64,000 nt of DNA from an uncultured Gemmatimonadales bacterium (GCA_963708135.1 OY970192.1:2368001-2432000); one strand, 5' to 3'. Shown: positions 1 to 11,888, counted from the stretch's first letter. Notes: generated by a model from the sequence alone, not told the origin. Translations and numbers: made by a program.

Positions 1-846
1 CTGCGCCTCGAGCAGCTTGCCCACGGCGCGCATCTCGAGCAGCCGGTCCTCGAGCTCGGCCCGGATCAGGTGCACCGCCCGCTCGACGGTCGAGCGCTGC
101 GTCACGAAGTGGGTCGCCGGGTAGATGGCCGCGCGCCGGAGCCGCGTGATCGCCTCGCCGGTGAGCGGATCGAAACGCGTGATGCGCTCGACCTCGTCGC
201 CGAACAGCTCGATGCGCACGGCCTGCTCCTCGTAGGCGGGGAACACCTCGATCGTGTCGCCGCGCACGCGGAAGGTGCCGCGCTGAAACTCGAAGTCGTT
301 GCGGTTGTACTGGATGCCGACCAGCCCCTGCAGGATCTCCCGCCGCCCGATGTGCTGCCCCACGTCCACCGTGAGCATCAGCTGCCGGTACTCGCGCGGA
401 TCCCCCAGGCCGTAGATGCAGGAGACCGACGCCACCACGATCACGTCCTCCCGTTCCATCAGCGAGGAGGTGGAGCGCAGCCGGAGCCGGTCGATGTCCT
501 CGTTGATCGAGGAGTCCTTCTCGATGTAGGTGTCCGTGGAGGGGACGTACGCTTCAGGCTGATAGTAGTCGTAGTACGAGACGAAGTACTCGACCGCGTT
601 CCTGGGAAAGAACTGCTTCAGCTCGCCGTACAGCTGCGCGGCCAGCGTCTTGTTGTGGCTCATCACCAGCGCCGGCTTGCCGTAGGCGGCGATCACCGAG
701 GCCATGGTGACGGTCTTGCCCGAGCCGGTGACGCCGAGCAGGGTCTGGCTGCGGTCGCCCCGCGCCACCCCCTCGGAGAGCTCCGCGATCGCCTGCGGCT
801 GGTCCCCCGCGAGCGCGAACGGGAGCTGAAGGTCGAAGGTGGACAT
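1..846 (-). CDS. uvrB: Excinuclease ABC subunit B (5' part; runs off window start)
   Basis: Hand translation from ATG at 846: [20 protein letters not shown]...[10 protein letters not shown]...[37 protein letters not shown]. Not listed in the ORF track. Confidence 0.97.
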
Positions 847-851
847 GCGGT

Positions 852-881
852 AATCTACCCCGGAACGGCGGGAGGGGTCGA
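852..881 (-). promoter_or_regulatory. Putative sigma70-type promoter for a leaderless uvrB mRNA
   Basis: Minus strand TCGACC-N18-TAGATT-accgc-ATG; no Shine-Dalgarno. Confidence 0.45.
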
Positions 882-890
882 GGGGGAGAC

Positions 891-1000
891 GCAAGAGCAA
901 GAGCAAGCGCAAGAGCAAGAGCAAGCGCAAGAGCAAGAGCAAGAGCAAGAGCAAGAGCAAGCGCAAGGCGCAAGCGCAAGGCGCTAGAGCAAGCGCGAGA
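891..1000 (+). repeat. Tandem array of ~18 GCAAG(A/C/GC) 6-7 bp units (left arm)
   Basis: GCAAGA, GCAAGC and GCAAGGC units read directly; degenerate at the 3' end (GCTAGA, GCGAGA). Confidence 0.95.
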
Positions 1001-1309
1001 GTGGCGTGCTCTGCCATTCCGACGCCCCGGTGTTCGGGGCAGCGTTGGGGCGTCCAGCACGGGAGCGAACGAATGGAGCCGAAGAAGGTCGAGGCGTGTC
1101 GGGAGAACGAGAGGGCGGGACGCCGAGGGGCGCGATTCGATCACGAGCGCCTGGACGTGTTCCAGGTCTCACTCGATTTCGTGGTCCTGGCGCAGACGAT
1201 CGCGGGCGCCGCCGGGCGAGCCGCACCCGCGCTGGCCGACCAGCTGTCTTGCGCCGCTTTCTCGATTCCGCTCAACATTGCGGAAGGTTCCGGCGAATTC
1301 AGCCTGGGG

Positions 1310-2631
1310 CAGTACTGTCCGGTTAAGCTGAGATGATGATGCCGTAACGGATTGCTACGTGGTGCGTTACGACGTTTTGGTTGCCGCACCGATTTGAACT
1401 TCGCTGCTGCGCCGCTATCCTGCCCGGACCCCCCGGCCGGAGTGGCGCATGAATCCCGGAAGCACGGTTTTCTCACAGGTGATGGCCCACGCATCTCGCT
1501 TCGCGCTCGATCGGTGCATCCGCCGCTACCACGGCAACCGGAGGGTCCGACGTTTCTCGTGTCGGGACCAGTTCCTCGCCATGGCCTTTGCCCAGCTCAC
1601 CTACCGGGAGAGCCTGCGGGACCTCGAGGCCACCCTCGGGGCGGCCCCCGAGAAGCTGTACCATCTTGGCTTCCGTTCGCCGCTCTCTCGCAGCACGCTC
1701 GCCGATGCGAACGAGAATCGCGACTGGCGCATCTACGCCGATTTCGCTCAACGCCTGATCGCAGACGCGCGTCGGCTCTACGCCGACGACACGTTGGGGA
1801 TCGAGCTCACGAACACCGTCTACGCGCTGGATTCCACCACGATCGACCTGTGTTTGTCGCTGTTCCCCTGGGCCTCGTTTCGTACGAGCAAAGGCGGCGT
1901 GAAGCTGCATACACTGCTCGACTTGGCAGGCAGGATCCCCGCCTACGCCTGGATCACGGACGCGAGCACCCACGATGTGCGCATCCTCAATGCGCTCATC
2001 CCGGAGCCCGGATCGATCTACGTCCTGGACCGCGGCTACGTCAACTTCGCCCGCCTCTACCGACTCGATCAGCACCGGGCCACCTTCGTCGTTCGCGCCA
2101 AGGCAAACCTCAAGTTCAACCGGCTCTCCTCAGGACCCGTCGATCGCACCACCGGCGTCTTCTGTGATCAGATCATCCGCCTTGCGCTGCCCCCGTCTGC
2201 CAGGGCCTATCCCGACCGGCTTCGCCGCGTGCGTTTCAAGGACGCAGGGTCCGGGCAGGACCTCGTCCTTCTGACCAACAACGTCGCGCTGCCCGCCGTT
2301 ACCGTGGCCGAGCTCTACCGCCTGCGGTGGCAGATCGAGCTCTTCTTCAAATGGATCAAGCAGCACCTCAGGATCAAGCGCTTCTTCGGCACGAGCGCGA
2401 ACGCTGTGCGCACGCAGATCTGGATCGCGATCAGCGTTTACGTCCTCGTCGCGATCGTCCGCAAGCGGCTCCGGATCGAGCGCGAACTCTACACAATTCT
2501 ACAGATCCTGAGCGTCTATGCGTTCGAGAAAGCCCCTCTCGCACAAGTACTTACGCGTTCGGCCTACACCCCCGAAGTCCCCTCCGATCGTAACCAGTTG
2601 TCGCTCTTCAACTTATAACCGGACACTACTG
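1310..2631 (+). mobile_element. IS4-family insertion sequence, 1322 bp
   Basis: Terminal IRs CAGTACTGTCCGGTTA / CAGTAGTGTCCGGTTA (1 mismatch); 9-bp target duplication AGCCTGGGG at 1301-1309 and 2632-2640. Confidence 0.95.
1449..2618 (+). CDS. IS4-family DDE transposase (DUF4372-type N-terminus)
   Basis: 389 aa; ALDSTTI, VLDRGY and YRLRWQIELFFKWIKQ (YREK-type) motifs. Confidence 0.95.
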   Translation: MNPGSTVFSQVMAHASRFALDRCIRRYHGNRRVRRFSCRDQFLAMAFAQLTYRESLRDLEATLGAAPEKLYHLGFRSPLSRSTLADANENRDWRIYADFAQRLIADARRLYADDTLGIELTNTVYALDSTTIDLCLSLFPWASFRTSKGGVKLHTLLDLAGRIPAYAWITDASTHDVRILNALIPEPGSIYVLDRGYVNFARLYRLDQHRATFVVRAKANLKFNRLSSGPVDRTTGVFCDQIIRLALPPSARAYPDRLRRVRFKDAGSGQDLVLLTNNVALPAVTVAELYRLRWQIELFFKWIKQHLRIKRFFGTSANAVRTQIWIAISVYVLVAIVRKRLRIERELYTILQILSVYAFEKAPLAQVLTRSAYTPEVPSDRNQLSLFNL

Positions 2632-2856
2632 AGCCTGGGGGAGAAACGGCGGTTCTACAGGATCGCCCGAAGGTCGGCTACCGAGTGCGCGGCGATCCTG
2701 TCCGTCGCGGAGCGCCTCGAGCTCGGCCAGTCAGCTGCGCGCGACCGCGGCCGTGAGCTCCTCGGTAGGATCGTGCCGATGCTGACCCGCCTGTGCGCCG
2801 CTCACCCACGCACCCACACCGCCCCCGAGCCCCCCGCCTGACCCCCACCCCCCGGC

Positions 2857-2904
2857 GCGCTTGCGCCTTGCGCTTGCCTCTTGCGCTTGCCTCTTGCGCC
2901 CTGC
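2857..2904 (-). repeat. Tandem array of ~7 CTTGC-core units (right arm, reverse complement of 891-1000)
   Basis: GCTTGC, GCCTTGC and CTCTTGC units; 2857-2877 is the exact reverse complement of 957-977. Confidence 0.9.
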
Positions 2905-2913
2905 GCCCTCCGT

Positions 2914-4047
2914 TCACCTCACCAGCCCCTGCCTCTCCATCTCCGCGAAGCTCGCCTCGACCCGGTCCTCGGCGGCCTGCCCGGCGGACCAGGCGAGCAG
3001 CTCGTCCAGGCCCTCGTCGAAGCTCAGGCGCGCCCGGAAGCCGAGGAGCTCCTCGGCGCATCGGGGGTCGCCGATGCAGTGGCGGATGTCGCCGGCGCGG
3101 TAGCGGCCGACCAGGCGGGGGGCGACGTCCACGCCGAGGCGCGAGGCGAGGCGCTCGGCGACCTCCGCGATCGTGACCGGGCGGCCCGTGCACACGTTGC
3201 AGACGCCGCTGCGGGCGGGCGGCGCCTCGAGGGCCGCGAGAACAGAGTCCGCGACGTCGTGCACGTGGATGAAGTCGCGGCTCTGGCGGCCGTCCTCGAA
3301 GACGAGCGGAGGATTGCCGTTCTTCAGCCGCCCCATGAAGATCGCGGCGACGCCGGTGTAGGGGTTCGAGAGCGCCTGGCGCGAGCCGAACACGTTGAAG
3401 AAGCGGAGCGCCAGGGTGGGAATCCGGTACGCCCCGCCGAAGCAGAGGGCGAGCTCCTCCTGCGTCTTCTTCGTGATGGCGTAGATGCTGGTGGCCTGGA
3501 GCGGCTTCTTCTCGGGCGTGGGGAGGGGCGCGAGCGCCTCGCCGCACGCCGGGCAGCGCACGTTCCAGCTGCCACCGGCGAGCTGTGCCTCGGGACGTGG
3601 CAATGGGGCGACGACACCGTGGTTCGGGCAGCGGCCGGCGCCTTCGCCATAGATGCTCATCGAGCTCGCGACGACGAAGCGGCGCCAGCGCGCGGGCTCG
3701 CGCGCCATCTCCTCCATGAGCATGCCCTGCCCGGCCACGTTGACGTCGGCATAGTAGTGGGGCTCGTACATCGACTGCCCGACCCCCACAGCGGCGGCGA
3801 GGTGGCAGACGGCGTCGGCCTCGCGCAGGGCATCCGCCACGGCGGTGCGGTCGCGCACGTCGCCGTGGACGAAGCGGATGCGGCCGGCGTCGAGGTGCGC
3901 CCGGAGGTGGACGGGCGAGGTCGCCTCGGGGCCGTGGACCTGGGGATCGAGGTTGTCGAGGACGGTGGGTTCGTGGCCGGCCTCGAGGAGGCGGTCCACG
4001 ACGTGGGAACCAATGAAGCCGGCGCCTCCGGTGACCAGCACACGCAT
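2914..4047 (-). CDS. NAD-dependent epimerase/dehydratase (extended SDR)
   Basis: GGAGFIGS, YAITK, RFFNVFG and SRDFIHV motifs; CxxH/CxxC insertion. Confidence 0.92.
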   Translation of the reverse strand: MRVLVTGGAGFIGSHVVDRLLEAGHEPTVLDNLDPQVHGPEATSPVHLRAHLDAGRIRFVHGDVRDRTAVADALREADAVCHLAAAVGVGQSMYEPHYYADVNVAGQGMLMEEMAREPARWRRFVVASSMSIYGEGAGRCPNHGVVAPLPRPEAQLAGGSWNVRCPACGEALAPLPTPEKKPLQATSIYAITKKTQEELALCFGGAYRIPTLALRFFNVFGSRQALSNPYTGVAAIFMGRLKNGNPPLVFEDGRQSRDFIHVHDVADSVLAALEAPPARSGVCNVCTGRPVTIAEVAERLASRLGVDVAPRLVGRYRAGDIRHCIGDPRCAEELLGFRARLSFDEGLDELLAWSAGQAAEDRVEASFAEMERQGLVR

Positions 4048-11747: not shown

Positions 11748-11888
11748 TCCGCCTCGAAATCGTGATCCGGTCCCCACATCCACCCCTCCTTACACGCGGG
11801 CGGGCCCGAGCGTTTCAAAGATCGTGCGCCGGTGGGGCCCACGCCATGGCCGGATGGGACGGCCGGGGCGCCCGGTCCGCGCGCGGAA

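Follow-up and report, generated by a model that had tools for sequence, protein, structure and literature searches.

We describe a candidate mobile cassette in a 64,000-nt stretch of DNA from an uncultured Gemmatimonadales bacterium (GCA_963708135.1 OY970192.1:2368001-2432000; hereafter the window), in which a small gene of the PF05635 four-helix-bundle family is bracketed by inverted arrays of short tandem repeats, the arms, between an epimerase gene and uvrB. Analysis of the host genome and its relatives reveals two new facts: RNase III was not found in the genomes of the host's family, and the leader of the four-helix genes carries a motif shared with transformation genes. Because this motif is common to DNA-uptake and recombination genes, natural transformation is the likely trigger for expression of such cassettes, and their likely substrate is single-stranded DNA, as opposed to excision from RNA. 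Our preferred reading, which we put forward tentatively and with a probability of roughly 0.45, is that of a recombinase-free hitchhiking cassette that is wired to a competence-type regulon and acts on single-stranded DNA through a mechanism we infer below. What the S23p/intervening sequence (IVS) proteins do, and where intergenic tandem 6-9-mer repeats come from, are long-standing questions, and this lineage removes the explanation usually given for them. The window copy itself is dead, and its value lies in giving entry to a class of elements with testable timing and substrate.

Inverted arms and the four-helix gene

The left arm of the window cassette (891..1001, + strand) is composed of 18.2 copies of GCAAG(A/C) units with a period of 6, and the right arm (2855..2907, - strand) of 7.7 copies of CTTGC units, the reverse complement of the left-arm word, with a period of 7. 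The two arms contain a perfect 21-nt inverted match (957-977 versus 2857-2877), which becomes 34 nt at 88% when extended, and the distance from arm to arm, once the insertion sequence (IS) interrupting the gene is removed, is 686 bp, with a rejoined gene of 145 codons. These values agree with a first-pass annotation made from the sequence alone, which had described about 18 GCAAG-core and 7 CTTGC-core units with a 21-bp inverted match, a unit of about 680 bp without the IS, and a single gene oriented opposite to both neighbours. The gene indeed lies on the + strand, and both host flanks, the 5' part of uvrB (1..846; PF17757 UvrB_inter, 121 bits) and the NAD-dependent epimerase gene (2914..4047; PF01370, 166 bits), on the - strand. 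For the arms as RNA, pairing is predicted in more than one register (-88 to -93 kcal/mol), so that the pairing anticipated by the annotation is supported by a predicted fold.

Arms were scored by aligning the 350 bp upstream of each gene with the reverse complement of the 350 bp downstream. The window locus scores 63, and a score of at least 60 is seen in 4 of 4426 other genes; the pairing of the window arms is not due to chance. The host genome, a single 5.45-Mb contig with 72% G+C and 97.65% completeness, harbours 11 PF05635 loci, each paralog with its own repeat word. Nine of these 11 paralogs score at least 40, compared to 54 of 4426 other genes and to 9 of 534 small genes with both gaps of at least 70 bp, and seven score at least 50, compared to 9/4426. 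Among 150 distinct homolog loci collected from relatives, 133 have full flanks; arms scoring at least 40 were found in 99 of these, versus 20 for direct orientation and 1.4% of 1500 mismatched pairs. Homologs are thus strongly enriched for flanking inverted repeats, and the first-pass proposal of a self-contained unit, made up of two arms and a gene and lacking its own recombinase, is upheld. Arms also accompany 20 of 30 homologs from other families of the phylum, for which the best locus per genome was considered. On genes that share the leader motif described below, arms were seen in 0/12 host genes, 0/5 Uma2 genes, both GxxExxY genes and 1/7 DUF559 genes; judged from these counts, arms travel with the cassette and not with the motif. 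Genes of the GxxExxY (PF13366) and DUF559 families with both arms and motif lie at G000:C1:3137568-3137954 and 1205765-1206337, which suggests the same packaging for other small genes (GxxExxY and one DUF559).

Repeat arrays are common in the host genome, which has 308 intergenic ones, and most large array families include a four-helix or GxxExxY gene. The GCAA word accounts for 18 arrays listed, including four gene-less hairpins of the same polarity, one of which folds with a z of -3.6. Across 73 family genomes the GCAAG pattern occurs in 11, with many loci in G000, G002, G006, G053 and G012, four of which are close kin; a GCAC pattern occurs in 10 of the 12 genomes of the clade to which it belongs and in 31/73 overall, in a weak test with a noisy control. 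Arms are polar, being G-rich upstream and C-rich downstream on the coding strand, with TGGGG in both arms at 45 loci and in the opposite polarity at 3. Several arms start sharply at AACGG, and AAC[GT]G is found in both arms of 36/131 homologs versus 14 in opposite polarity; we rejected a universal terminal tag, given that AAC[GT]G is confined to this subset. A role of the repeats as DNA uptake sequences was likewise rejected, the words being many and different, with tens of copies each. We found no description of arm-bracketed four-helix genes outside rRNA in the open-access literature.

The enclosed gene is split into a 5' part of 79 codons starting at ATG 1073 (1073..1309, +), with GGGAG ahead of it (1061-1065), and a 3' part of 66 codons plus stop (2641..2841, +; stop at 2839-2841). 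A start at GTG 1001 was discarded, since it lies upstream of the predicted promoter and ATG 1073 has the GGGAG. The two halves match PF05635 positions 1-53 and 57-105 with E-values of 1e-5 and 7e-5, each under the 33.8-bit cut-off, and an intact gene at the uvrB junction of a relative (G002) scores 73.7 bits, in keeping with the family named in the first-pass annotation. The product of this intact gene matches the solved structure 2GSC and is predicted as four long helices (pLDDT, the predicted local confidence score, 94.6); the model has a template-modelling (TM) score of 0.86 to 2GSC and of 0.75 to the protein Avd, and 2RLD was also matched. Both 2GSC and 2RLD consist of five chains. The window gene is therefore a member of the PF05635/TIGR02436 (S23p) family, as a pseudogene. 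The family motif is RxxxSxxxNxxE (PMC3936711), of which the window copy retains Ser, Asn and Glu and has Cys in place of Arg; the available text of PMC3936711 merely remarks on such genes within cas operons, and that of PMC8700078 merely lists them.

The inactivation of the window copy has two components. An interruption at 1310..2631 (+) with 16-bp terminal inverted repeats is assigned to the IS4 family by NF033592 (263 bits versus a cut-off of 115), encodes its transposase at 1449-2618, and is flanked by the left (1301..1309) and right (2632..2640) copies of its target-site duplication. This IS is present in six full genome copies, every one with a perfect 9-bp duplication, and it thus displays the DDE transposase, terminal inverted repeats, 9-bp duplication and multiple copies expected of IS4-family elements. 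A second IS4-like family, 73% identical to the window IS, has three copies (G000:C1:332250-333362, 4828253-4829365 and 5135795-5136907). The other component, overlooked by the first-pass annotation together with the promoter-like motif at 1002-1046, is a Cys codon (1250-1252) at a near-invariant column where 136 of 149 homologs have Arg; the Cys is unique to the window copy. The gene is therefore broken twice, by the IS4 split and by the Arg-to-Cys change, and on sequence grounds the window locus is a dead copy that has lost its function through both. Intact four-helix genes, as judged from substitution rates, are under purifying selection, with nonsynonymous divergence (dN) well below synonymous divergence (dS) in 11/11 close pairs tested.

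Beyond the left arm, an uncertain outer extension (864..890; AACGG, G-rich) may be present, which could alternatively be the uvrB promoter region; by eye it mirrors CCGTT at 2910-2914, and a similar stretch lies upstream of uvrB in relatives G002 and G053. At uvrB itself (847-857, -), a TAGATT hexamer stands 7 nt before the ATG, as it does by eye in several relatives, suggesting a leaderless transcript. Gene calls came from our own hexamer model, so some gene starts will be off. A public contig is identical to the window over 932-1339 (arm, gene and IS left end), and the run behind it may be that of the source sample. In three public contig sets, in which 2647-2967 is without cover, we found neither a joint free of the IS nor one free of the cassette.

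A leader motif shared with DNA-uptake and recombination genes

Unseeded expectation maximization on 143 leaders of four-helix genes yielded the motif TG(G/T)CC-N6-GC(C/T)AT, to which a GCCCC extension was added. The full motif, TGGCC-N6-GCYAT-N6-GCCCC, is followed at a fixed distance by a -10-like nAnnnT (A 0.79, T 0.74). It scores at least 8 in 108 of 141 leaders of the family, in all clades and both orientations, is independent of gene orientation (p 0.83), and is present in 9/11 of the host's own paralogs. In the window, the predicted regulon promoter TGGC-N7-GCCAT-N6-GCCCC (1002..1046, +), with a weak -10-like hexamer at 1040-1045, scores 20.2 when the matrix is derived from 101 leaders that all come from other genomes. 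The same matrix returns 56 hits of at least 15 in the host genome, 54 of them intergenic, compared to 0-2 with shuffled columns.

In the host genome, these hits lie upstream of recA, two ssb genes, comM, comF, yraN and recQ, and they also head a PilB/GspE-like ATPase gene, an eight-gene minor-pilin-like operon, miaB-comEC and bamD-nadD-secA-radC. Further hits precede an integron-type integrase gene and four IS91/ISCR-type transposase genes, as well as five Uma2, seven DUF559 and two GxxExxY genes, antitoxins and some unrelated genes; some of the Uma2 and DUF559 copies were named by their likeness to the scanned ones. Tandem motif copies precede several DUF559 and GxxExxY genes, and the motif-bearing integrase (G000:C1:3066828-3067859) has an extra N-terminal stretch. 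In a non-circular footprinting test upstream of comM and recA, a matrix built from four-helix leaders alone scores at least 8 for comM in 25/25 relatives (four of 29 loci, short or wrongly anchored, being set aside) and for recA in 15/29, with 0 hits on the reverse strand and 0/19 at uvrB. Moreover, comM retains the motif in three genomes where no four-helix gene was found (G042, G052 and G013), for which reason we regard it as a host motif that cassettes carry. Nine genes lying just upstream of comEA have no motif of their own, and at five of the nine loci a copy scoring at least 10 lies inside the upstream gene, to which coding constraint could contribute.

Several known promoter and operator types were considered for this motif. 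It was found neither at the two lexA genes of the host genome (G000:C1:1996838-1997449 and 1358421-1359095) nor at uvrB, as expected for a non-SOS motif, and a LexA box was therefore rejected. A sigma-54 promoter was rejected as well, the spacing being 2 nt short of the consensus, and scans for consensus sigma-70 promoters and intrinsic terminators returned 0 matches. We encountered no description of the motif in the open-access literature. Judged by the shared promoter motif, the window gene is a candidate member of the competence regulon, and we infer that the motif is an activator-dependent promoter that would be induced at competence. The motif delineates a candidate competence/recombination regulon for a Gemmatimonadota family, and tells when to seek expression of the four-helix genes and which substrate to try.

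The position of the motif also constrains how the arms could be used. Of 70 loci that have both arm and motif, 64 show a left arm that stops short of the predicted start. As this start falls between left arm and gene, an mRNA of the gene itself would include a single arm; with the start inside the arms, pairing of the two would be confined to read-through RNA or single-stranded DNA. A second motif copy in the window (11817..11861, -; score 17.5) heads the co-oriented run bamD-nadD-secA-radC-relA-epimerase that ends at the cassette, so that co-induced read-through could run antisense across it.

Movement, mechanism and competing explanations

Machinery that might process or move such a unit was sought in the host genome and its relatives. 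RNase III returned 0 matches in the host genome with three profiles, 0/73 in family genomes and 0/104 in genomes of families f1-f8, with controls giving their signal, and it was found in 15/16 genomes of four other families, which points to an apparent near class-wide loss. Reverse transcriptase (PF00078, RVT_1) had 0 matches in the host genome, the control giving a signal in 3/14, and a reverse-transcriptase origin of the repeats was rejected on this basis. The Y1 transposase profile PF01797, which covers REP-associated tyrosine transposases (RAYTs; REP, repetitive extragenic palindrome), also had 0 matches in the host genome, where the Y1 proteins of six relatives matched nothing; weak Y1 matches occur in 37/73 family genomes. 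RAYT-driven REPINs (paired inverted REPs) were rejected for lack of a RAYT in the host genome. Within 700-3200 of the window there is no rRNA match and no long direct repeat, although no search aimed at the template/variable repeats of diversity-generating retroelements (DGRs) was made, and two sub-threshold snoRNA hits in Rfam were judged to be chance. With RNase III, reverse transcriptase and RAYT not found, the models of IVS-type RNA excision, DGR and REPtron fail.

Comparison of junctions provides evidence of movement. The region upstream of uvrB was inspected in 20 relatives; one is cut by a contig end, and 18 of the 19 others have no four-helix gene there. The empty epimerase-uvrB sites that the first-pass annotation had proposed to look for thus exist, as in the plain junction of G019, and a few relatives show, by eye, gene-less inverted arrays. 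Four-helix genes at the uvrB junction, in the same orientation and often two together, were found in G002, G053, G006 (relA side only), G041 and G063. On the far side of uvrB, at the junction with a tsaE-like gene, another four-helix clade is present in four genomes (loci L118, L122, L140 and L149). At the metH-MTHFR junction, the 25 genes do not form one clade (approximately unbiased test, p-AU 0.0225; tree of 56/149 rows and 121 columns), two are flipped and their words differ; this hot spot (G000:C1:3277832-3278510 and 24 relatives) gathers several clades and many words. In G047, two genes 82% identical (L144 and L152) have homology running exactly from arm end to arm end within unrelated flanks. 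No target-site duplication was seen by eye at their ends or around the window arms and hairpins, and, lacking both this and transposase-type ends, the cassette was rejected as a miniature inverted-repeat transposable element (MITE) or insertion sequence. Two of the host's own paralogs at distant sites (L006 and L008) have gene, leader and right arm in common, L006 being without a near left arm. The repeat word is shared in 12 of 32 protein pairs at least 60% identical, at different sites and in different genera, and in about 1% of pairs below 50% identity. Copy number of four-helix genes ranges from 0 to 15 per genome, and 86 of 115 homologs lie between co-oriented neighbours.

Under the hitchhiking reading, the cassette would be expressed together with host DNA-uptake and recombination genes and would use its inverted arms on single-stranded DNA to enter, and remain in, host-gene junctions. 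By analogy with Avd on its stem-loop, the protein may form a pentamer and recognize the repeat word of its own cassette in folded single-stranded DNA, each subunit crevice taking up one unit. Once DNA has entered the cell, its arms would pair, loop the gene out and make the two flanking homologies abut, whereupon RecA and ComM could bring the insert into an empty site or replace a resident cassette with it; gene-less hairpins with the cassette's word would represent derivatives and landing pads, and a ring made at the same moment could hold the arm stem. Such looping-out would fit the re-use of junctions, flipping between arms, arm-to-arm copies without duplication and the gene-less hairpins, while induction, binding and any effect on recombination are putative steps. 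Insertions by transformation require ComM and involve two D-loops, with lower efficiency than deletions, according to PMC13663708 and PMC12378983. If it is true that the cassette folds incoming DNA to promote its own insertion, it would raise the efficiency of insertion by transformation and amount to a counter-move to chromosome curing.

Several observations weigh against this reading. Regarding the regulon, dprA has no strong motif copy (best 7.2), the copy before comEA scores only 7.8 in the host genome, and the motif heads non-competence genes (miaB, a dihydroorotase-like gene, a sigma-54 activator, a CAAX protease and antitoxins). Outside the family, it was found in 0/30 four-helix leaders and 1/25 correctly anchored comM leaders, with arms persisting; given this near-absence, the link between motif and cassette may be local, or other promoters may be used elsewhere. 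Regarding movement, a single origin of the uvrB-junction genes was not rejected (p-AU 0.415), and they may be one old, vertically inherited insertion; this, together with its pseudogene status, counts against recent mobility of the window copy. The metH result could also be explained by loss of copies from that junction. The word of the window arms occurs in opposite polarity in G002 and G053, as if the gene lay between two hairpins, and the gene could therefore not be looped out with these same ends. The covariation of repeat word and protein clade that the first-pass annotation had proposed to test holds in part, but most of the 12 pairs with a common word belong to a single clade, so that they do not count as independent. 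Finally, several array families of the host genome have no cognate gene.

An alternative we consider unlikely, yet the one most deserving of attention, is that the gene is a domesticated accessory of a DNA-uptake/repair regulon, encoding a single-stranded nucleic-acid chaperone, and that REPIN-like arms are spread by something else and merely accumulate around it, for example as insulators or through gene capture. It is favoured by the purifying selection seen on intact genes, by their long stay at fixed junctions (25 genes at metH, 9 at comEA and 6 genomes at relA/uvrB) and by the abundance of arrays genome-wide, as well as by G006 and G012, where the gene takes the place of a spacer within tandem hairpin units. 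Such units (L171, G012:C3:727690-729610, about 200 bp in G012; L070, G006) recur elsewhere in the genome, like the bacterial interspersed mosaic element (BIME) arrays around RAYT genes. Domestication is harder to reconcile with arms being absent from the 12 host regulon genes and the five Uma2 genes while bracketing 9/11 four-helix genes, with the variable copy number, with comM keeping its motif where no four-helix gene was found, and with a unit that moves arm to arm. The motif might also mark a LexA-independent DNA-damage regulon, the cassette using damage-induced single-stranded DNA and moving within a genome rather than between cells. The motif on recA, two ssb genes, recQ, the integron-type integrase and the ISCR-type transposases, and the close paralogs at different sites within one genome (L006/L008 and L144/L152), would suit this scenario, which is nonetheless improbable in view of the motif on comM, comF, yraN, the comEC operon, the PilB-like ATPase and the minor-pilin operon, and of its absence from both lexA genes and uvrB.

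It is still less probable that the cassette acts as an IVS-like RNA element, with arms that pair in read-through host transcripts and a stem that is either cut out by another nuclease or attenuates the operon. The strong predicted duplex, the prevalence of co-oriented neighbours and the Coxiella IVS, an RNase III target with heptamer repeats in its stem (PMC4990558), are compatible with this idea, but RNase III was not found in any family genome or in f1-f8, the predicted start lies inside the arms, and Rfam offers no match of substance; the IVS-like processed RNA put forward by the first-pass annotation is disfavoured for the first two of these reasons. Slightly behind it we place the possibility that the cassette is a passenger mobilized in trans by a host hairpin recombinase under the same promoter, either the integron integrase or an ISCR HUH transposase, the four-helix protein being dispensable for movement. 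These recombinase genes do bear the motif in the host genome; arm words, however, are unrelated between cassettes, and the integrase was not found in two of five cassette-rich genomes, the drafts G047 and G068, where no close relative of it was found and which have 15 and 11 four-helix genes.

Comparison with known systems

We compared the cassette to systems that resemble it in gene, repeats, protein fold or regulation. The helix-45 23S rRNA IVS of Coxiella burnetii (PMC4990558) encodes S23p, of the same protein family, in an open reading frame (ORF) within the loop of a terminal inverted stem, with short tandem heptamers in the 5' arm and an ORF that can decay, as in the cassette. In contrast, the cassette lies outside rRNA, between epimerase and uvrB, its lineage gave no match to RNase III, a predicted promoter of its own falls inside the arms, and its intact homologs are under purifying selection. 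Of the defining features of an IVS, it possesses the terminal inverted stem, in sequence and predicted fold, but not the rRNA location, and the enzyme for RNase III excision was not found.

REPtrons/TIRtrons and REPINs (PMC3116915, PMC3733652) resemble the cassette in the single gene between inverted repeats, in the recurrence of the repeat word across the genome as hairpins without a gene, in the several gene/word pairs per genome, in the tandem hairpin arrays beside the gene and in long vertical residence. The cassette shares their dispersed gene-less inverted doublets, but there is no HUH/Y1 transposase between its repeats, the enclosed gene has no known catalytic role, and the arms are tandem 6-15-mers rather than single palindromes. 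The DGR protein Avd (PDB 4DWL, 8UB7) has the same four-helix fold as the cassette protein, at the TM score given above, and crevices between the subunits of its pentamer accommodate a stem-loop whose bases are flipped (bioRxiv 10.1101/2023.10.23.563531), which provides a model for how the cassette protein might recognize repeat units; the latter, however, is about 10% identical to Avd and stands alone, with no reverse transcriptase in the genome.

The GGGAATC heptamers of Xanthomonas (PMC4692102) are, like the arms, intergenic tandem repeats, often in gene-less inverted pairs and of unexplained origin. According to the supplement of that work, a GGGAATC array overlaps the start of XCC0516, the solved family member of PDB 2GSC, and this overlap ties a solved protein to a known orphan heptamer family; no partner array is listed on the far side of XCC0516, and the link between repeat and protein is absent from the PMC4692102 passages available. 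The toxTA locus of Haemophilus influenzae (PMC6957337) is, like the cassette as we read it, a small, horizontally acquired element under a host competence promoter and often inactivated, and therefore sets a precedent for a small element falling under such a promoter; it differs in being a toxin-antitoxin pair without repeat arms and in using CRP-S sites, from which the layout of the motif described here departs. Overall, the cassette is built like an ORF-bearing IVS and organized like a REPtron, yet fails a defining test of each, as it does those of DGRs and MITEs.

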